Of a DNA stretch of 40,933 nt, positions 30,246 to 40,523 are shown in pieces (the stretch's first letter is position 1; the number at the start of each line of letters is the position of its first letter). The stretch comes from Actinomycetota bacterium (lineage in GTDB: Bacteria; Actinomycetota; Actinomycetes; S36-B12; UBA5976). The stretch covers positions 1 through 40,933 of the forward strand of contig JBJOKB010000050.1 of assembly GCA_046046315.1 (NCBI GenBank), given 5' to 3'. The notes under the pieces were generated by a model. The model ran no database searches. It was not told the DNA's origin and was given only the letters and a program-made list of their open reading frames with translations. The position numbers were made by a program, and so were the translations under genes.

Positions 30246-31238
30246 CTACTGCCCTACTGCGTTACAAATTGCAGTGATTGTGGAAGATAAATCCCCAGCT
30301 CTTTTAAATCCTTGAGGCAATTTATCGGGCCACCCAGGTCCTGCCATTAATAACAATGGGGTGGGACGTGCATTTATTAAGTTTTCAAATTCTGCAGGTA
30401 TTGCTTTAACTGGAACTTGTCCCCAAATCAAAACAGCAGCCGGAGCTAATCTTTTAATTGCACTTAACAGAGAGGAATGGGGAACCCGTGCTCCTAAAGC
30501 TCTACTTCCCACTCTTCGTTCAGCTAATGCCGCAGCAGCAACGTACTGCGGAATAGTGTGTAAATCATCTGGCGCAGAAGCTAAAAGTACAGGTCTAATG
30601 TTTACTGGTGCAATTAGTTGATCTGCTCTTTGTTTCATCTGTCCAATAATGGATTCACTTAAAATATGTTCTGATTCAATTCCCTCACCAGTCAATTCCC
30701 ATTTCTTTCCCATGGCAAATAGAACTGGGGTTAACAATTTTTCCCAAGTCCAAATAACACCGCGAGCATGAATACTGTTTTGAATCAACTGTGAACAAGC
30801 AGGAGCATCAAGTGAATAAGCTGCTTTTGCTAATCCCCTGGCAATTGCCGGAGCACCTTGCATCGATAAAACAGCTCCGCCACCTGGGTGGCCAAATTCT
30901 GATTCAATTCCCAATTCATTCAAAACAGTATCGATTTTGTTGCCCAATGTATTTGTGTCCATTAAAGAAATTTCTTGAACGTTGTTCATTTCTGAATTAA
31001 GTGCTACTCGTGCCGCTTCTCCAGCTGGCATTCCCGATAAAACTAAACGTCTCATAAGTTCCAGGCGTGCAATATCTGTGATGCAGTAGCGACGATGCCC
31101 CCCGGAAGATCGATCACTTGGACAAAGTCCATAGCGACGTTCCCAGGTTCGAAGGGTTGCTGGGGCAACACCAACTCGTCTGGCGACCACGGCAACGGTC
31201 AAACCCAGTGAGATTTGGTCTGCTTCGTATTCGGACAT
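30246..31238 (-). CDS. MerR-family regulator with cobalamin-binding domain (CarH/LitR-like)
   Basis: HTH VARRVGVAPATLRTWERRYG...GGHRRY; W-x9-EH (WELTGEGIESEH); DLH in RPVLLASAPDDLHTIP; ATG at 31238 preferred. Confidence 0.85.
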   Translation of the reverse strand: MSEYEADQISLGLTVAVVARRVGVAPATLRTWERRYGLCPSDRSSGGHRRYCITDIARLELMRRLVLSGMPAGEAARVALNSEMNNVQEISLMDTNTLGNKIDTVLNELGIESEFGHPGGGAVLSMQGAPAIARGLAKAAYSLDAPACSQLIQNSIHARGVIWTWEKLLTPVLFAMGKKWELTGEGIESEHILSESIIGQMKQRADQLIAPVNIRPVLLASAPDDLHTIPQYVAAAALAERRVGSRALGARVPHSSLLSAIKRLAPAAVLIWGQVPVKAIPAEFENLINARPTPLLLMAGPGWPDKLPQGFKRAGDLSSTITAICNAVGQ

Positions 31239-31285
31239 AGGCCAATTCTCTCTCGGTTGAACAACTTTGGCCAATCGTAAGGCCG

Positions 31286-31381: not shown

Positions 31382-31681
31382 ATGGCTGATGTGACCCGCT
31401 TACCTGGCCCAAACGCAGATTTATGGGACTGGCAGCTTAAAGGGGCATGCCGTGGTGAAGATCCTGAGATCTTCTTTCACCCTGAGGGTGAACGCGGACC
31501 TGCTCGCGAAAACAGAATTGCTTTAGCAAAATCTATTTGTTCAACTTGCCCTGTTTTGCGTCAATGTGCTGAACACGCTTTGGCTGTTCGTGAACCATAC
31601 GGAGTATGGGGTGCGATGAGTGAAGATGATCGTGAAGCAATTTATGCACCAGTCAAGGAAGTTCTTCCAGTAGCTGGTTAA
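31382..31681 (+). CDS. whiD: WhiB-family Fe-S transcription factor, WhiD/WhiB3 type
   Basis: RLPGPNADLWDWQ, four Cys (CRG, CSTC, C), FFHPEGERG, EPYGVWG. Confidence 0.92.
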   Translation: MADVTRLPGPNADLWDWQLKGACRGEDPEIFFHPEGERGPARENRIALAKSICSTCPVLRQCAEHALAVREPYGVWGAMSEDDREAIYAPVKEVLPVAG

Positions 31682-31708
31682 TACTTTTTATCTGTAAACC
31701 TTCCAAAA

Positions 31709-31739
31709 AAATGCCCCCGCAAAATTCACGGGGGCATTT
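31709..31739. terminator. Intrinsic terminator between convergent whiD and cupin genes, probably bidirectional
   Basis: AAATGCCCCCG-9 nt loop-CGGGGGCATTT with an A-run before and T-rich sequence after. Confidence 0.85.
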
Positions 31740-31752
31740 GAATTTTTAAATT

Positions 31753-32223
31753 CTAATTTTTAGTTCTTATAAATTGCGCAACTTCAGCATTCTTTCTTAA
31801 ATTAATCAGATCATCAGCCGAAGGAAGAGTTGGTCTGTCACGTTCAACTTTTACCAGGCACAAAAAACCGAGGTAATCATTATCTGTTGATCTAAATTGA
31901 TGCCAAGCCCAAGATGGAACATATAAAAGATTATTTATATCTAATTTAATGATTTTATCTTCGACTAAACAAAAACCTTTGCCTCTAATTGGAATCACGA
32001 TGTGTATATGTTCGTGTTTTTCTAACGTTGTATGCCCTCCTGGTAACACTTCAAAATATCTGACTTCAAAGCCCTCAGGAGTGTTCTCTGCAAATAGCTT
32101 TTTTCGAGTTACATCTTTAAAAGAGGGGTTACCATCTTCATCCTTATAAACTAATTCTTCAATTCCCGACCATTTAAAAGGTTCAGTTTGAAAGACATTA
32201 ATTTGATTTTCGTTTTTTTCCAT
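31753..32223 (-). CDS. Cupin, homologue of 1-methylthio-xylulose-5-phosphate methylsulfurylase
   Basis: W-x-G...YK...FKDVTR, RYFEVLPGGHTTLEKHEHIH, WHQFR, LGFLC (Cys122), ERDRP match the R. rubrum-type enzyme as recalled; clustered with an RLP. Confidence 0.8.
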   Translation of the reverse strand: MEKNENQINVFQTEPFKWSGIEELVYKDEDGNPSFKDVTRKKLFAENTPEGFEVRYFEVLPGGHTTLEKHEHIHIVIPIRGKGFCLVEDKIIKLDINNLLYVPSWAWHQFRSTDNDYLGFLCLVKVERDRPTLPSADDLINLRKNAEVAQFIRTKN

Positions 32224-32234
32224 AAAATAATTAT

Positions 32235-32708
32235 TTACAAATTTCTCTTTGAATTAATGACTCCGGTATCAAATCCAGCAAGGTGAAGTCCGCCATTAAA
32301 TCTTGCGTGTTCTATTTTTAAACACTTATCTTGAACAACGTTTAATCCTGCCTCAGTGCCTCGTTCTGCTTCTGGTTGGTTGCTGATTCCTAATTGCATC
32401 CAAAAAGTCTTGGCTTTTATTTCAATTGCCTCATCTAAAACTTCTGGAATTGCGGAGGGTTTTCTAAAAACGTCAACAATATCAACTGCTACAGGAATAT
32501 CTTTTAAAGATTTATAGGTTTTTAAACCTAAAATACTTTCAACACTTGGATTTACTAGATATAAATCAAAATTACTGGACGCTAACAAATATGTGATAAC
32601 AAAAAAAGATGCCCTAGATGAATTGTCTGATGCTCCAACTACAGCAACTGTTTTTGAATTTCTTAAAATCTCAGAGATTTCTGATGCATCTGGTTCATGC
32701 CATTTCAT
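32235..32708 (-). CDS. CoA-binding protein (YccU-like)
   Basis: VAVVGAS, VNP, VDIVDVFRK, WMQLGI, QDKCLKIEH; ATGA overlap with the metY stop. Confidence 0.9.
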   Translation of the reverse strand: MKWHEPDASEISEILRNSKTVAVVGASDNSSRASFFVITYLLASSNFDLYLVNPSVESILGLKTYKSLKDIPVAVDIVDVFRKPSAIPEVLDEAIEIKAKTFWMQLGISNQPEAERGTEAGLNVVQDKCLKIEHARFNGGLHLAGFDTGVINSKRNL

Positions 32709-34003
32709 TTAGCTTTTTCTCCAGTTGCGGCCTCAAGTGCTTGATCTATGTCCCAAATAATATCTTCAATATCTTCAATACCTACGCTAATTCTGATCAA
32801 ATCTGACTTTACTCCAGCAGACTTCAGTTGCTCATCAGTTAATTGGCGATGCGTAGTTGAAGCAGGGTGAATTACCAGAGTTCTCACATCTCCCACATTG
32901 GCTAAGTGAGAAGCTAGTTTAAGAGAATTTATGAATTTTTCTCCAACTTCTCTTTCTCCTTTTACCCCAAAACTAAATACAGATCCTGTTCCTAATGGTA
33001 GATATTTTTTTGCACGTTCAAAGTGAGGATGTTTTTTTGATCCAGCAAAATTAACCCAAGAAATGCGAGGATCATTTTCTAGAAAGTTTGCTACGGCAAT
33101 TGCGTTTTCAACGTGATCTTTCATTCGCTGTGACAAAGTTTCTATTCCTTGAATCAATAAGAAAGCTGCTATTGGAGTTAGAGAAGATCCGATATCTCGT
33201 AATTGTTCACTTCTAATTTTGGTTAAGAAACCGTATTCTCCAAAATTTCCCCACCAAGAAACTCCACCGTAGTAAGCAACTGGTTCAAGCATGGATGGAA
33301 ATTTTCCATTTCCCCAATTAAATTTTCCGGACTCAACAATAATTCCGCCTAAAGTTGAACCGTGTCCACCCATAAATTTTGTCAAACTGTGGACCACTAT
33401 GTCGGCGCCATGTTCAATTGGTCTAATTAAATAAGGAGTAGTAATAGTTGAGTCTATTATTAAAGGAATCCCATGATCGTGGGCAACTTTTGCTAAACCG
33501 GCAATATCGGCAACTTCATTAGATGGATTTGACACAACTTCTGCAAAAATAAATTTAGTTTTTTCTGTAAGAGCTTTTTTGTAATCCTCTGGATCTGAAC
33601 TTGAAACAAAAGTTGTCGAGACCCCAAACTTCTTCATGGTTACATCTAGTTGGGTAATTGTGCCACCATAAAGATTTGCAGAAGCTACAACATGATCACC
33701 ATTACCAACTAGTGATGCAAATACTAAAAATTGAGCTGATAAACCAGAAGCGGTTGCTACTGCACCAATGCCGCCTTCAAGTGCAGCGACTTTTTCTTCT
33801 AATGCTGCAACTGTTGGATTTGAAATCCTGCTATATATGTTTCCATATTTTCTCAGGGCAAAAAGATCGCCTGCATCTTCTGTATTTTCAAAAACAAATG
33901 CTGTTGATTGATATATGGGTACTGTTCTTGATCCTGTTTCTTTGTCCGGGGCAGTTCCCGAATGCAAGGATTTAGTTTTGAATCCAAATTCATGATCTGA
34001 CAT
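32705..34003 (-). CDS. metY: O-acetylhomoserine aminocarboxypropyltransferase (sulfhydrylase)
   Basis: PIYQST, IYSRISNPT, LYGGT, HSLTKFMGGHG (PLP Lys), HLANVGDVRTLVIHPASTTH. Confidence 0.93.
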   Translation of the reverse strand: MSDHEFGFKTKSLHSGTAPDKETGSRTVPIYQSTAFVFENTEDAGDLFALRKYGNIYSRISNPTVAALEEKVAALEGGIGAVATASGLSAQFLVFASLVGNGDHVVASANLYGGTITQLDVTMKKFGVSTTFVSSSDPEDYKKALTEKTKFIFAEVVSNPSNEVADIAGLAKVAHDHGIPLIIDSTITTPYLIRPIEHGADIVVHSLTKFMGGHGSTLGGIIVESGKFNWGNGKFPSMLEPVAYYGGVSWWGNFGEYGFLTKIRSEQLRDIGSSLTPIAAFLLIQGIETLSQRMKDHVENAIAVANFLENDPRISWVNFAGSKKHPHFERAKKYLPLGTGSVFSFGVKGEREVGEKFINSLKLASHLANVGDVRTLVIHPASTTHRQLTDEQLKSAGVKSDLIRISVGIEDIEDIIWDIDQALEAATGEKAK

Positions 34004-34009
34004 AAATCA

Positions 34010-34096
34010 ACGCTACCACATTTAAAATCTGCGAACTTTTTGCAATAAATCTGACGAAGCGACTCATTTATGGCCTGCTTCAAACAATGGTAGCAT
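34010..34096. promoter_or_regulatory. Divergent extended -10 promoters for metY and the RLP gene
   Basis: Minus strand TGG-TAGCGT (34015-34010) 6 nt before the metY ATG; plus strand TGG-TAGCAT (34091-34096) 10 nt before the RLP ATG. Confidence 0.55.
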
Positions 34097-34106
34097 TTTC
34101 ATATCT

Positions 34107-35207
34107 ATGTCAAAATTTCAAATTACGTATTTAGTCGATTCGAATTCCGCTGATGATTTATTTCATTCAATAAAAGTTGAGCAAACTACAGAATTTCCTT
34201 TTGAGCTTTCCCCTGAATGGATTCAGAATGAAATTGTTGGACAACTAATTTCTAAAAATGAAAAGCAAAATAAAACTGAAATAATAATTCAATATGATTT
34301 AGCTATAACTGGAAAAGAATTACCACAATTACTAAATATAATTTGGGGAAATATTTCAATGTACCCAAATGTAAAAATTATTAATCTAAGTTTTAGTAAT
34401 GAATTATTGCAATTTCTTAAAGGTCCTAGATTTGGTATTTCAGGTTTACGAAAAAAACTTAATGTTTCATCAAGACCAATACTTGCTACCGCTTTAAAAC
34501 CAATGGGTCTTAGTTCCACCGAGTTTGCTCAAATGGCCAAAACACTTGTTGAAGCTGGATTTGATTTAATAAAAGATGATCAAAGTCTTGCAAACCAGAC
34601 CTGGGCGCAATGGCTTGAAAGAGTAAAAATTATTTCACAAACCGTAAATGAAGCGAATTCTAAATTTGGAAAAAATACAATTTATGCTCCAAGTTTAAAT
34701 AGACCTGCAGATGAGATTGCTGATTGCGCATTTGAAGCGAAAAGTTTTGGAGCTGGTGCATTTTTAGTGATGCCAGGAGTTTTTGGTTTTGACACAATGC
34801 GCATGCTTGCTGACAATGATGAACTGGCACTTCCCATTATGAGTCATCCATCAATGCTTGGGTCATTTTTTATGGATCAAAATCAAGGTCTGACTCATGA
34901 GTTAGTCCTAGGAACACTTAATCGAATAAGTGGTGCAGATATTTGTATATTCCCTAATTTTGGTGGACGGTTTAGTTTTACTCCAGAAGAGTGTTTAAGT
35001 ATTTCTAATTCTTGTCGAAATGATATGTCTCATATAAATAAAATTTGGCCAAGTCCAGGTGGTGGTATGACGATTGAAAGAATTCCAGAGATTATTAATT
35101 TCTACGGTAATGACACGATCTTATTAATTGGTGGAGCACTTCATCGTAATAACTTATTTAACAATGCAAAAGAATTATTTGAGTTAGTTAATAAATTAGA
35201 ATCCTAA
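34107..35207 (+). CDS. RuBisCO-like protein (form IV, R. rubrum/deep-YkrW type), putative methylthioribulose-1-P 1,3-isomerase
   Basis: VEQTTEFP, QLLNIIWGNIS, GPRFGISGLR, TALKPMGLS, DLIKDDQ, MSHPS, FPNFGGRFSF, PSPGGGM, LLIGGAL. Confidence 0.88.
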   Translation: MSKFQITYLVDSNSADDLFHSIKVEQTTEFPFELSPEWIQNEIVGQLISKNEKQNKTEIIIQYDLAITGKELPQLLNIIWGNISMYPNVKIINLSFSNELLQFLKGPRFGISGLRKKLNVSSRPILATALKPMGLSSTEFAQMAKTLVEAGFDLIKDDQSLANQTWAQWLERVKIISQTVNEANSKFGKNTIYAPSLNRPADEIADCAFEAKSFGAGAFLVMPGVFGFDTMRMLADNDELALPIMSHPSMLGSFFMDQNQGLTHELVLGTLNRISGADICIFPNFGGRFSFTPEECLSISNSCRNDMSHINKIWPSPGGGMTIERIPEIINFYGNDTILLIGGALHRNNLFNNAKELFELVNKLES

Positions 35208-35218
35208 AAAGTTTAGAA

Positions 35219-37210
35219 TTATCTAGGAAAAGCTGCTGCTACTCCGCCATCTACTGCTATTACAGATCCAGTTGTTCTAGATGATTCATCTGATAACAAA
35301 TAACTAGTAGTTAAAGCAACATCTTTAGATGTCACATGAACTTTCAACATGTTTCTCGAAGCATAAAAATCTTCTAATTCTTCTGGTTTGACTCCATGGG
35401 CCGCGGCTCTTTGCTCACGAATTCCGCCTTCCCAAAGCTTTGAATTATCAAATATGGCATCTGGGTTGATGGCGTTTGCTCTTATTTGTGCAGATCCGCC
35501 TTCGATTGCAGCAATTCTCATTAGTTGCAACATTCCAGCTTTGCTTACAGAGTAGCCACCAAATCCTGCACCGGGTGAAAAAGCATTTTTACTAGCAATA
35601 TAAACAAGGGATCCGCCAATTCCTTGTTTTCTTAAATTAATCATTGCGTGCTTTGTGATTAAGAATGAACTGGAAAGATTAACTGCCAATCCCTGATTCC
35701 ATTTATCAAGAGTTAATTCTTCTAATGAATCGGAAACACCAATTCCTGCACTCATAACAACACCATCAAATCCACCAAAATTCTTAATTGCAGAGTTTAT
35801 TGTTTCGACAACCACTGATTCTTTTGTTTGATCTCCCACAACAAATTCTGGCTTAAGTCCTTTATTTGCTGAAATCAATTTTTCAGTTTCTTTAAGTCCT
35901 TCTTCACCAAGATCGGCTAAAACTAAACTTGCCCCTTGAGATGCAAGTTCAAGAGCTATTCCCCTACCAATTCCAGAACCTGCTCCTGTGACAACAAAAA
36001 CATGACCTGCAAATTTTTGTGGTTTAGGTTTTGAACTTAATTTGTAAAGTTCCATTGGCCAATAATCAAATCCAAAAACCTCAGAATCTCCAATAGTGTC
36101 TGCTGCCCCAAATGCATCTATAACTCTTCCTGCAACGGAATGTGTATGAAATGCAATATCGGCAAGCATCTTGCCTTCATTTTTACTAGAGCCAGTTGTA
36201 ATAGAACCAATGCCTGGGAGTAAAACAACACGTGGATCTGGATCGTGCATTGAATATCCTGCAGGAAGTAATGATTTGTTTTCTTCAAAATATTTTTTAT
36301 ATCTTTCAACATATTTATCAATCACTGAAATAGAATTTGCCGGATCTGCTTTTTCAGGTAGAACAGCAGACCAAGGCCTAATTCTTAACATGTGATCAGC
36401 ACTGGATGAACCTGCCTCAGCAATTGCAGGTAAATCTTTTCGTTTAGAGATTTCTTGAAGACGATTATCAACTGTCAAAACTCTTCTTGTTTTTTTGCTT
36501 AATTTTCCTCTTAAAGCTAAAAGCAAATCATTAAGCTCCTGATCACTTGGACCTACATGGTCAAATTTTGCTGCTGGTTTAACAGCCAAAGAATCTAAAT
36601 ATTTATTGGCTTTATTAACTGCATTCATTGTTTTGTCTTTACATACATCACTATTTTCATCCCAGACAATTAATCCGTGATGCGCCAAAACAATTCCTTC
36701 CATATCTGCAAATTGGGAAGAGAATTTACTTAATTCAAAACCTGGTCTAATCCAATCCACGTAAGCAAATCCATCACCTAAAGCTTCTTGGACTGCTTTC
36801 TTGCCACCTTTGTGATTTGTTAAAGCACATATTGAATCTGCATGAACATGATCTATGTGCTTAGAAGGTAAAAATGCATGCAGCAAGGTTTCTATAGATG
36901 GTCTTCTACTATTTGGATCAACTAACGCTTTTCCAACTAAATCAGTCATTTCTTCATCTGAAAGTTTTTCAAATTGTTTTAAACTTAATAGTTCTTCTAA
37001 ATACAATGCCGGATAATCAACAGCAACAGCATTTGTCATATCCGCGCCTGATCCCTTAACCCATAAAACCGTGCGCTTTCTTCCTAGATGATCTGTAATT
37101 TCACCTTTAGCAGAAGTATTACCTCCTCCAAAAACAACTAAAGATTGGTCTGCTCCAATAAATTGAGAACGCGAAACTAATTCTTCTAGTGCTTTTGGGA
37201 TGGTGGTCAA
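35219..37210 (-). CDS. Bifunctional class II aldolase / short-chain dehydrogenase (RhaEW/YuxG-like fusion)
   Basis: GGGNTSAK, VKGSG, PSIETLLHAFLP, DHVHAD, HHGL (aldolase); VTGAGSGIG, YSVSK, NAINPD (SDR); TTG at 37210 after AAGGA, 1 nt past the mtnA stop, preferred over 37261. Confidence 0.88.
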   Translation of the reverse strand: MTTIPKALEELVSRSQFIGADQSLVVFGGGNTSAKGEITDHLGRKRTVLWVKGSGADMTNAVAVDYPALYLEELLSLKQFEKLSDEEMTDLVGKALVDPNSRRPSIETLLHAFLPSKHIDHVHADSICALTNHKGGKKAVQEALGDGFAYVDWIRPGFELSKFSSQFADMEGIVLAHHGLIVWDENSDVCKDKTMNAVNKANKYLDSLAVKPAAKFDHVGPSDQELNDLLLALRGKLSKKTRRVLTVDNRLQEISKRKDLPAIAEAGSSSADHMLRIRPWSAVLPEKADPANSISVIDKYVERYKKYFEENKSLLPAGYSMHDPDPRVVLLPGIGSITTGSSKNEGKMLADIAFHTHSVAGRVIDAFGAADTIGDSEVFGFDYWPMELYKLSSKPKPQKFAGHVFVVTGAGSGIGRGIALELASQGASLVLADLGEEGLKETEKLISANKGLKPEFVVGDQTKESVVVETINSAIKNFGGFDGVVMSAGIGVSDSLEELTLDKWNQGLAVNLSSSFLITKHAMINLRKQGIGGSLVYIASKNAFSPGAGFGGYSVSKAGMLQLMRIAAIEGGSAQIRANAINPDAIFDNSKLWEGGIREQRAAAHGVKPEELEDFYASRNMLKVHVTSKDVALTTSYLLSDESSRTTGSVIAVDGGVAAAFPR

Positions 37211-37211
37211 T

Positions 37212-38234
37212 TTAGTTTCCTTGTTTTCTATTAGCTGGAGTTTCACCTTTTGAAACTTCAATTACGCCTAACTCTGTAACTATTGCTGAAATATATTTTG
37301 CCGGAGTCACATCAAAGGCTGGGTTGTAACCCCTGGACTCTAGAGGTGCAACTCTTACTCCATTAAAATTTAAGATTTCAGAATCATCACGCAATTCAAT
37401 TTCAATTTCATTTCCTGTTTTTGTCGATAAATCCACAGTGGATTCAGGTGCTACAACCATAAACGGAATATTTGCAGCATGACAAGCTAATGCAACTCCC
37501 AAAGAACCGATTTTGTTTGCAGTATCTCCATTTGCAGCAATTCGATCTGCACCAATTAACGCAACATCTACTTCACCTCTAAGAATGGTGCTGGCTGCTG
37601 CACCATCTGCTAAAACTAAATGTGGAATTTTATTTTGTACTAATTCCCAAGCAGTTAATCTTGCGCCTTGCAAAAGCGGTCTTGTTTCATCTGCAAAAAC
37701 ATTTTCAACTAAACCCCGTTCGTGTAATTCTCTTATAACACCAAATGCTGTTCCCCAAGCAGTTGTCGCAAGCATTCCAGTATTGCAATGGGTAAGAATT
37801 CTTAAAGGTCTTCTCGTTATTTTATTTAAAATCCAATCAGCGCCAAGTTGGCCAGTTTTCTTATTTCCTTTTTCATCTTCTGCGGCAATTTGTTTTGCTA
37901 AAGCTAAAACTGCATCGCGACCATTTTCTAATTGTGTGAGTGCTTTATCTACACCCCAGGCAAGATTTACTGCTGTTGGTCTTGCATCTCTGATTTTGAG
38001 AATTTGTTTTTCTAATTCATCTTTTGACCAGTTTTCTTTTTTCCCCTGATCGATTGCAGTAACAACTCCATATGCACCGGTTGCTCCTAAAGCAGGGGCT
38101 CCCCTAACTGCTAAACAAACAATCGCATCAACTAACTGATCAACTTTTGTGATTTCCAAAAATGAAACTTCATGAGGAATCTTCGTTTGATCTAGCAGAC
38201 GAAGGTGGTCTTCCACCCAAACAACAGCGCGCAA
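37212..38234 (-). CDS. mtnA: Methylthioribose-1-phosphate isomerase
   Basis: LLDQTKIP, VRGAPALG, ARPTAVNL, LTHCNTG, ETRPLLQGARLTAWEL, GADRIAANGDTANKIG, NPAFDVTP. Confidence 0.95.
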   Translation of the reverse strand: MRAVVWVEDHLRLLDQTKIPHEVSFLEITKVDQLVDAIVCLAVRGAPALGATGAYGVVTAIDQGKKENWSKDELEKQILKIRDARPTAVNLAWGVDKALTQLENGRDAVLALAKQIAAEDEKGNKKTGQLGADWILNKITRRPLRILTHCNTGMLATTAWGTAFGVIRELHERGLVENVFADETRPLLQGARLTAWELVQNKIPHLVLADGAAASTILRGEVDVALIGADRIAANGDTANKIGSLGVALACHAANIPFMVVAPESTVDLSTKTGNEIEIELRDDSEILNFNGVRVAPLESRGYNPAFDVTPAKYISAIVTELGVIEVSKGETPANRKQGN

Positions 38235-38321
38235 TTTTCATCCTTTGTGTCGTATATAACAGAATAGTGTGCTTCAATAAAATCAATTTCAAGTGTTGAA
38301 TGTGGGTAAAGGAGTTTTTGC

Positions 38322-38843
38322 ATGAAGCAAATAATACGAGTTTTATTAGGTATCTCAGTCTTATGTATTTTTTCCTTAGCTCCAGCTCAGGCTCACACAG
38401 AACTAGTCTCTGTTGAACCAGCAACTGATCAGGTCATGCTAACGCTGCCATCAGAAATTAAATTAACTTTTGGAGAATCAGTTATAGCTGAAGGAACTTT
38501 TGCTTCAGTTACCACATCTTCAGGATCTGTTGAAACAACTGTAAGAGTTGAAGCTGCAGAAGTTTATGTTTCAATTCCAACAGATGTTGTAGGTCCAGAT
38601 ATAACAATTTCTTGGAAAACAGTTGCTGCTGATGGTCATCCTTTGGACGGAGAAGTTGTTTACAAACTTGCAGAAGCTCGAGATGTGGCAACACCAGAAG
38701 TGACAACCATGGAAGAAGAACCTGTAGTAATAAGTGCACCAGTTGAAGAAAATTCTTCTAACATTAGTTGGCTACAATGGCTTTCCCTTGGTGCATCAAT
38801 TGGAATTGCTATTACTTTCTTTTTGAAAATGCGCAAAAAATAA
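38322..38843 (+). CDS. CopC-family copper-binding protein with C-terminal membrane anchor
   Basis: Signal peptide ending AQA, then His as mature residue 1 (HTELVS); LTFGE; ADGHP; C-terminal TM helix plus RKK. Confidence 0.85.
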   Translation: MKQIIRVLLGISVLCIFSLAPAQAHTELVSVEPATDQVMLTLPSEIKLTFGESVIAEGTFASVTTSSGSVETTVRVEAAEVYVSIPTDVVGPDITISWKTVAADGHPLDGEVVYKLAEARDVATPEVTTMEEEPVVISAPVEENSSNISWLQWLSLGASIGIAITFFLKMRKK

Positions 38844-38877
38844 GAGACGTTCAAATTTATTGAACGTCTCTTATTTT
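38837..38877. terminator. Bidirectional intrinsic terminator between copC and groEL1
   Basis: Perfect 18-bp inverted repeat AAAATAAGAGACGTTCAA-ATTTA-TTGAACGTCTCTTATTTT. Confidence 0.9.
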
Positions 38878-38888
38878 ATTTTTAATAT

Positions 38889-40523
<1,635 letters not shown>

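Follow-up and report, generated by a model that had tools for sequence, protein, structure and literature searches.

An mtnA-coupled aldolase–dehydrogenase fusion of the RhaEW family: a predicted one-protein form of the DHAP-shunt aldolase step in Actinomycetota

Introduction

Three described systems lie closest to the locus reported here. The dihydroxyacetone phosphate (DHAP) shunt, or 5-deoxyribose disposal (MtnP or MtnK, MtnA/DrdI and Ald2/DrdA), is known from Rhodospirillum rubrum, Rhodopseudomonas palustris, Escherichia coli ATCC 25922 and Bacillus thuringiensis. RhaEW (YuxG, Caur_2283) is characterized, in the excerpted text of Rodionova et al. 2013 (PMC3870299), as an L-rhamnulose-1-phosphate aldolase/L-lactaldehyde dehydrogenase. 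The third, the 5'-methylthioadenosine (MTA)-isoprenoid shunt of R. rubrum, employs MtnP, MtnA, a RuBisCO-like protein (RLP) of the DeepYkr type, the cupin Rru_A2000 and a sulfhydrylase, and excerpts of PMC5893883 have it running side by side with the DHAP shunt in R. palustris. Here we analyse a 40,933-nucleotide stretch of Actinomycetota DNA (contig JBJOKB010000050.1, assembly GCA_046046315.1; hereafter the window), in which mtnA is directly followed by a gene for a fusion of a class II aldolase with a short-chain dehydrogenase/reductase (SDR).

A first-pass annotation, made from the window's letters, had proposed that this fusion was recruited to cleave the MtnA product. Gene context and phylogeny support the proposal, the substrate role standing as a prediction. 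We consider it probable that the fusion performs a DHAP-shunt step within one protein, cleaving 5-methylthio- or 5-deoxy-ribulose-1-phosphate to DHAP and oxidizing the released aldehyde with NAD+. One refinement concerns the nature of the protein: as its domains read, it is a whole RhaEW-type protein placed in the role of Ald2, and not an Ald2 fused to a dehydrogenase. The pathway itself is known; what the evidence below supports as new is a predicted fused, non-orthologous form of its aldolase step.

Results

Organization of the mtnA–fusion locus

The following features make up the locus (positions are those of the window; aa, amino acids).

37212–38234, minus strand: mtnA, 340 aa, TTG start; TIGR00512 404.4 bits (cut-off 279) and PF01008; by family assignment a 5-methylthioribose-1-phosphate isomerase, probably acting on 5-deoxyribose-1-phosphate too
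37208–37222, minus strand: coupling junction, comprising an AAGGA ribosome-binding site, the mtnA stop codon TAA (37214–37212), one base (37211) and the TTG start of the fusion (37210)
35219–37210, minus strand: the fusion, 663 aa, with a RhaE-type class II aldolase, a helical middle region and a RhaW-type SDR; stop codon at 35221–35219
36596–37210, minus strand: aldolase domain of the fusion, aa 1–205; PF00596, PDB 3m4r, invariant His121/His123/His178
35222–36016, minus strand: SDR domain of the fusion, aa 399–663; PF13561 and PF00106

Profile searches found a single copy of mtnA in the genome to which the window belongs, which is 87% complete, a figure that qualifies every absence from this genome reported below. 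The first-pass annotation had placed the likely TTG start of the fusion 1 nt past the mtnA stop with its Shine–Dalgarno sequence inside mtnA, and direct reading confirms this: the AAGGA motif lies 7–8 nt 5' of the TTG at 37210, within the final mtnA codons. A mechanical list of open reading frames starts the fusion at a more upstream TTG (37261; 680 aa); we take 37210 as the start because every homologue aligns from residue 1–3 of the shorter form. Of the 12 same-genus loci, 11 have a comparably tight junction, the two genes overlapping by at most 4 nt or standing at most 1 nt apart, with ATG (8), TTG (2) or GTG (1) as start codon at the homologous position; the script left the junction of the twelfth (L018) unresolved. 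Judged from these junctions, mtnA and the fusion are translationally coupled, both in the window and in 11 of the 12 same-genus loci.

Domain structure and family membership

The RhaEW architecture (Aldolase_II, linker, SDR) is matched across the full length of the fusion. Aldolase_II (PF00596) covers aa 21–195 with 46.7 bits against a gathering cut-off of 22.2, and adh_short_C2 covers aa 409–657 with 148.9 bits. All four curated family models recognize the protein below their cut-offs, namely TIGR02632 (537.2 bits, E 6e-161; cut-off 567.75), NF006190 (573 bits; 1014), NF006189 (501.6 bits; 634) and NF006196 (440 bits; 831). By full-length homology, then, the fusion is a member of the RhaEW family that lies under every curated family cut-off.

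Structural comparison points the same way. With the aldolase domain as query, phmmer returned 3m4r as the sole match in the PDB (E 4e-36) and zero FucA-type chains. An AlphaFold2 model of the fusion, built from 41 sequences, reached pLDDT 89.9 and pTM 0.87. Foldseek pairs its N-terminal third with 3m4r (TMt 0.90), the structure of a class II aldolase domain on its own, and its C-terminal third with classical NAD(P)/NAD-dependent SDRs (TMt about 0.9). The middle region, aa 206–398, had no structural match in this search of the full model, which returned 3m4r and then SDR chains only, with no solved full-length relative among them.

The residues expected of both activities are in place. His121, His123 and His178, which we take to be the counterparts of the FucA zinc ligands, do not vary in alignments of 41 and of 91 sequences; together with the Pfam score and the fold, they mark the N-terminal domain as a predicted class II metal-dependent aldolase of the PF00596 type. 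The motifs of a classical SDR are likewise invariant in both clades described below (TGxxxGIG at 408–415, Asp433, Ser540, Tyr553 and Lys557), as is the NAG-like motif A488–G489. Asp433 sits at the end of the second beta-strand, where an Asp marks NAD preference in SDRs. At 30 further positions the two clades are fixed differently (e.g., R103/A, T131/A, M274/F, H357/I and L388/E).

Linkage to mtnA in related genomes

We searched 61 related genomes for the fusion, mtnA, the RLP and Aldolase_II proteins. An mtnA-type fusion (55–91% identity) is present in 19 genomes, comprising 18 of the 19 genomes of the genus, the window's included, and one genome of another genus (G024). mtnA occurs in 21 genomes, these same 19 plus G029 and G034, and by coordinates it adjoins the fusion in 17 of the 18 fusion-carrying relatives. 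In G005, none of mtnA, the fusion, the RLP or an Aldolase_II protein was found.

The eighteenth relative, G008, was considered as a break in the linkage and set aside as not evaluable. In G008, the contig bearing the fusion (L009; C76, 3448–4410) is probably a chimeric join, in which an unrelated TPR-repeat-like frame runs into residue 15 of the fusion; its mtnA lies on a separate contig and has one internal TAA.

In several relatives the pair is part of a larger cluster. The G024 operon consists of mtnA, the fusion and mtnK (TIGR01767 357 bits, cut-off 275), with the RLP gene opposite. In G007, a GntR gene, mtnA, the fusion, a sugar ABC importer, mtnK and an NTF2-like gene follow one another, with the RLP and a split transketolase opposite; G001 carries the same cluster, assigned by similarity. 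As L039 (G007:C1, 16818–19860) illustrates, same-genus relatives pair the RLP with this split transketolase/DXS-like enzyme and not with a cupin.

Where the fusion is present, other Aldolase_II proteins are missing: it is the only Aldolase_II match in the window genome, and G007 and G024, the other two fusion-bearing genomes checked, have no second one either. G029 and G034, which have mtnA without the fusion, each encode one stand-alone, 210-aa FucA-like class II aldolase, unlinked to mtnA. This pattern fits, weakly, a non-orthologous replacement of the aldolase. In the sister genus lacking the fusion, mtnA stands in the order recA–recX–mtnA–miaB–folD–miaA (L136; G029:C2, 5054–10766), beside miaB, a radical S-adenosylmethionine (SAM) methylthiotransferase that would produce 5'-deoxyadenosine.

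Wider sampling and phylogeny

A scan of one genome per species yielded at least 596 stretches encoding relatives, of which the best 80 were analysed. Among these, seven loci encode fusions at 39–65% identity, and six of the seven have mtnA directly upstream. The first-pass annotation had let its proposal stand or fall with conserved linkage to mtnA among homologues, and that linkage holds both in the relatives and at these further species-level loci. Five of the six are labelled Actinomycetales/Actinomycetota (in one case Rubrivirga) and one is a metagenome-assembled genome (MAG) of Omnitrophota, in which a purine nucleoside phosphorylase (NF006054 333 bits), mtnA, the fusion, uppP and an adenine phosphoribosyltransferase gene (apt) follow one another. 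An mtnP homologue lies within 3 kb at four Actinomycetota-type MAG loci. The locus labelled as a Rubrivirga sp. MAG (L044) carries an actinobacterial-type mtnA–fusion–RLP block at 58–65% identity, nested among the Actinomycetota rows, and has arisen either by horizontal transfer or through misbinning of the contig; upstream of the block, an LldD-like gene runs in the divergent direction.

At identities of 36% or less, the picture is the reverse, with an adjacent mtnA in 0 of 73 loci among the best 80. Adding G021 and G057 brings this set to 75, of which 0 adjoin mtnA and 56 lie within 3 kb of a gene for a rhaI-type isomerase; of the 18 loci without a rhaI match, 6 have almost no downstream flank. 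G021 belongs to the window's own family; its fusion, 34% identical, is flanked by rhaI on one side and by two rhamnulokinase-like genes on the other. Among 300 further genomes sampled across the phylum, none encodes another fusion above 38% identity. Actinomycetota fusions at 36–38% were considered as intermediates and rejected, five of the six best examined being rhaI-linked. mtnA itself is common in the phylum-wide sample, occurring in 162 of 301 when the unpublished G142 and G148 are counted.

Two unrooted trees were computed, both by short searches: tree 1 with 91 rows (IQ-TREE, LG+C20 PMSF) and tree 2 with 40 rows (LG+G4), the latter extended by the G211 fusion and by six fusions from Actinomycetota, of which five are rhaI-linked. 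Tree 1 separates a clade of 16 rows (15 mtnA-adjacent plus L047) from 75 rows of which none is mtnA-adjacent, with a Shimodaira–Hasegawa-like approximate likelihood-ratio test (SH-aLRT) value of 100. In tree 2, a branch with an SH-aLRT of 100 places all 19 rhaI-adjacent rows together on one side. In both trees, the window fusion thus lies opposite all rhaI-linked fusions across such a branch, so that the separation of mtnA-linked fusions from the RhaEW of rha operons, as first proposed, is borne out by a clade of their own. Since the rha-type fusions from the same family and phylum (G021, G057 and five f27/f18 genomes) are placed on the rha side, the split is not merely taxonomic. That the fusion family splits in two, rha on one side and mtn on the other, can safely be stated from these trees.

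The fusion of G211 falls on the non-rha side of tree 2. It is of the NF006196 type (892 bits, cut-off 831) and is accompanied by an LsrF-like thiolase (L145; G211:C73, 296–10899); the opposite side of this locus holds a GntR gene and an operon of ABC importer, mtnA and mtnK.

Rhamnose genes in the window genome

The reading that automated annotation invites is that the fusion is an ordinary RhaEW of rhamnose catabolism that stands beside mtnA by chance. Family-level homology (the TIGR02632 match) speaks for it, and so does the name 'rhamnulose-1-phosphate aldolase/alcohol dehydrogenase' that JGI gives to close homologues. On labelling, the first-pass annotation was right in part: it expected a rhamnose-catabolism label, which JGI applies, while NCBI says only 'SDR family oxidoreductase'. 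We regard this reading as barely credible. The fusion stays under the TIGR02632 cut-off and outside the rhaI-linked clade, and its linkage to mtnA is conserved although not one of the 75 rha-side loci has an adjacent mtnA. Moreover, the genome search that the first-pass annotation had called for found none of rhaA, rhaI or rhaB by profile. XylA accounts for the single match to the Gram-positive RhaI model and is the one xylose-isomerase-like barrel found; the one FGGY kinase, XylB, adjoins a xylose-type binding protein. Within the window, the reported lack of a rhamnose isomerase or kinase is confirmed; rhamnose transporters were not searched for. On gene context and phylogeny, the fusion is very probably not a rhamnose enzyme and represents a separate branch of the RhaEW family.

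Genes feeding the pathway

A predicted source of the MtnA substrate is encoded elsewhere in the genome. Contig C74 (L002, 150–2949) carries in succession a phosphorylase of the 5'-methylthioinosine (MTI)/MTA type (NF006599 252 bits, above the cut-off of 223), a TRZ/ATZ amidohydrolase like the MTA/5'-deoxyadenosine deaminases, and an SDR. This gene order suggests a route in which the nucleoside is first deaminated and then phosphorolysed, and with this phosphorylase the window genome holds a feed-in gene for a DHAP shunt. Six radical-SAM matches in the same genome would yield 5'-deoxyadenosine.

The feed-in genes bear on another reading, in which the locus serves a different nucleoside pentose: MtnA, as a general ribose-1-phosphate isomerase, would turn ribose-1-phosphate into ribulose-1-phosphate, which the fusion would cleave to DHAP and glycolaldehyde, the latter going on to glycolate. 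This could explain why the phosphorylase of the Omnitrophota locus is a general purine nucleoside phosphorylase and not MTAP; it also suits the stand-alone aldolase of G029, whose best match is the haloarchaeal ribulose-1-phosphate aldolase model (under cut-off), and the lack of a detected spermidine synthase in the window genome. Still, we find the ribose reading quite improbable, given the operons of G024, G007 and G001, each of which includes an mtnK above its cut-off, an mtnA above the TIGR00512 equivalog cut-off, and adjacent RLP, cupin and sulfhydrylase genes that require a methylthio substrate.

The RLP, cupin and sulfhydrylase genes beside the fusion

The genes on the far side of the fusion are listed here.

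34107–35207, plus strand: RLP, 366 aa, convergent with the fusion; best solved match 3qfw_A
32705–34003, minus strand: O-acetylhomoserine sulfhydrylase; TIGR01326 595.8 bits (cut-off 495.1)
32235–32708, minus strand: CoA_binding_2 protein, 157 aa; PF13380 126 bits
31753–32223, minus strand: cupin of the 1-methylthio-xylulose-5-phosphate methylsulfurylase type; matches 3kgz and 3jzv
30246–31274, minus strand: MerR-family regulator, 342 aa, just downstream of the cupin; CarH-like match of 75.6 bits, far under cut-off

The RLP matches 3qfw_A, a short RLP of 378 aa, with E 1.2e-57, and MtnW-type enolases score lower; we take it to be of the DeepYkr type. Divergent from its gene runs a sulfhydrylase–CoA-binding–cupin operon, in which the gene for the CoA_binding_2 protein sits between the other two and overlaps the sulfhydrylase gene by 4 nt. 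The cupin aligns over nearly its full length with 3kgz (E 1.8e-38) and 3jzv (R. rubrum Rru_A2000; E 2.8e-37), the latter presumably being the 1-methylthio-xylulose-5-phosphate methylsulfurylase. O-acetylhomoserine sulfhydrylase combines methanethiol with O-acetylhomoserine to give methionine. By these assignments, the RLP, cupin and sulfhydrylase correspond to the known MTA-isoprenoid shunt, encoded beside the fusion. With this shunt next to it, the MtnA product, a ketose-1-phosphate, would be a branch point; the first-pass annotation had placed one there, between aldolase and RLP, and the 3qfw-type RLP, the Rru_A2000-type cupin and the sulfhydrylase bear it out.

The same genes invite a variant of classical methionine salvage, in which the aldolase-like domain would act as a dehydratase like MtnB, or else as an epimerase or decarboxylase, and supply the RLP, itself an enolase of the MtnW type. 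MtnB is in the same Pfam family, the RLP has MtnW models as its best NCBIfam matches, and an RLP gene stands beside the fusion in several genomes. Yet the RLP remains well under the MtnW cut-offs (225 vs 409 bits) and closest to the short RLP 3qfw, the cupin belongs with Rru_A2000 and not with ARD, and the fusion is homologous over its full length to the characterized aldolase RhaEW. Neither ARD (PF03079) nor MtnC (TIGR01691) was found in the window genome, and classical methionine salvage is therefore unlikely. Taken together, we give an MtnB-like role very little credence.

The convergent RLP and fusion genes have their stop codons 11 nt apart (35207–35219), an interval in which no hairpin resembling a terminator was found. 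A scan for promoters and terminators over 31500–38900 returned fewer sites than shuffled sequence did and nothing usable. The MerR-family regulator might regulate the cluster.

Discussion

A predicted cleave-and-oxidize step

The genes on contig C74 suggest that MTA and 5'-deoxyadenosine would be deaminated and phosphorolysed to 5-methylthio- and 5-deoxy-ribose-1-phosphate, which MtnA, by its family, would convert to the ribulose-1-phosphate form. The metal-dependent class II aldolase domain of the fusion would then release DHAP and either 2-(methylthio)acetaldehyde or acetaldehyde, and the NAD-type SDR domain, by homology to RhaEW, would oxidize these to 2-(methylthio)acetate or acetate. Such an oxidation would draw the reversible cleavage forward and avoid free aldehyde. 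The fusion would thereby fill the role of the stand-alone Ald2/DrdA, to which it is non-orthologous. The RLP, cupin and sulfhydrylase would consume the same MtnA product and recover its sulfur as methionine, the sulfur-free 5-deoxy sugar presumably taking the aldolase route.

We read the direction of the SDR step as oxidation because RhaEW oxidizes with NAD+: the excerpts of PMC3870299 report NAD+-dependent lactate formation, no NADH activity, and no DHAP without NAD+. The opposite direction, in which the aldolase role is kept and the SDR domain reduces the aldehyde, yielding 2-(methylthio)ethanol or ethanol, would make the protein a fused counterpart of Ald2 plus the alcohol dehydrogenase of the R. 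rubrum/R. palustris DHAP shunt. SDRs are usually reversible carbonyl reductases, and among solved structures the closest SDRs act on alcohols or ketones. Furthermore, 2-(methylthio)ethanol is the end product of the shunt as known, and passages of a 2026 review (PMC13474568) and of PMC5893883 call its reductase for 2-methylthioacetaldehyde unknown. We nonetheless think reduction unlikely, since Asp433 suggests NAD over NADPH and the RhaEW of Chloroflexus aurantiacus gave lactate in the assays just cited.

Several points weigh against the proposed cleavage and oxidation. Chief among them is stereochemistry. Rhamnulose-1-phosphate is 3R,4S. 5-Deoxyribulose-1-phosphate is 3R,4R, as are FucA-type substrates (in the excerpted text of PMC6079011), and a RhaE-type domain would need an altered C4 preference, which is the main chemical objection. 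The choice of oxidation over reduction is drawn from homology, and the DHAP shunt as known from R. rubrum and R. palustris would set the opposite precedent, ending as it does in the alcohol. The C74 phosphorylase stays under the TIGR01694 cut-off (249 vs 274.85 bits). mtnK, Pfs (TIGR01704) and spermidine synthase (PF01564) were not found in the window genome, so that 5'-deoxyadenosine or imported substrates may weigh more than endogenous MTA as feed-in. The co-occurrence counts come from close kin, and a single origin of the linkage would explain them. L047 (Euzebyaceae, 47% identity) lacks mtnA across the 5.6 kb available upstream. Finally, both trees are short, quick searches in which L048 and L145 form long branches.

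Significance

We found no description of an mtnA-linked aldolase–SDR fusion in the literature searched, supplementary files being outside its reach. The excerpts of PMC6302742, PMC6079011, PMC10986504 and PMC12632272 contain no relevant passage on such a fusion, and the literature that names RhaEW does so, in the parts covered, in rhamnose work or as a passing citation. If the proposed role is true, it adds a fused, non-orthologous form of the aldolase to the DHAP shunt, and corrects a systematic mis-annotation, in the JGI rhamnose-type name as well as in the generic NCBI one.

Close homologues carry the NCBI name Candidatus Nanopelagicaceae and fall into more than 120 protein clusters at 65% identity or more, some with more than 500 member sequences. 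Because metagenomic homologues are this many, the enzyme may account for an appreciable part of the turnover of SAM by-products in lakes. The window displays two fates of one intermediate together: the RLP and cupin would recover its sulfur, the fusion its carbon. With both side by side, the partition between them becomes testable.

A more far-reaching version, which we put forward tentatively and consider somewhat doubtful, is that an NAD+-gated cleave-and-oxidize enzyme makes 2-(methylthio)acetate (plus acetate) the end of MTA/5'-deoxyadenosine disposal in very abundant freshwater actinobacteria. Were this so, both methylthioacetate as a terminal metabolite and the resulting organosulfur flux in lakes would be new, and the whole non-rhamnose half of the PRK08324 family, NF006196 included, would serve SAM by-product sugars.

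Comparison with known systems

Like the DHAP shunt, the locus has mtnA in an operon with a class II aldolase, with mtnK or a nucleoside phosphorylase clustered in relatives, and the expected products are DHAP and a C2 aldehyde; the coexistence with the MTA-isoprenoid shunt recalls the R. palustris version. It differs in that a RhaE-type domain fused to an SDR within 663 aa takes the place of the FucA-like Ald2/DrdA of about 210 aa, and in that the same protein would also process the aldehyde, probably by oxidation, a task left to a separate reductase in the known shunt.

With RhaEW, the fusion shares the three-part architecture, full-length homology at 33–38% identity, the metal-binding His and the SDR catalytic residues, and probably also NAD+-coupled cleavage followed by oxidation. 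Unlike RhaEW, it forms its own branch with the 30 clade-specific positions, is never beside rhaI/rhaB and almost always beside mtnA, and has a presumed substrate of opposite C4 configuration.

Similarly to the MTA-isoprenoid shunt of R. rubrum, homologues of the RLP, cupin and sulfhydrylase lie within 3.5 kb of mtnA. That shunt, however, has no aldolase–SDR fusion, while here both routes interleave around one mtnA.

A last comparison is with NF006196 (PRK08324.2-4, bifunctional aldolase/short-chain dehydrogenase, no assigned function), a second subfamily whose member in G211 occurs with mtnA, mtnK and an ABC importer. The window protein is only 33% identical to it, and a further difference is the LsrF-like thiolase paired with the G211 member.

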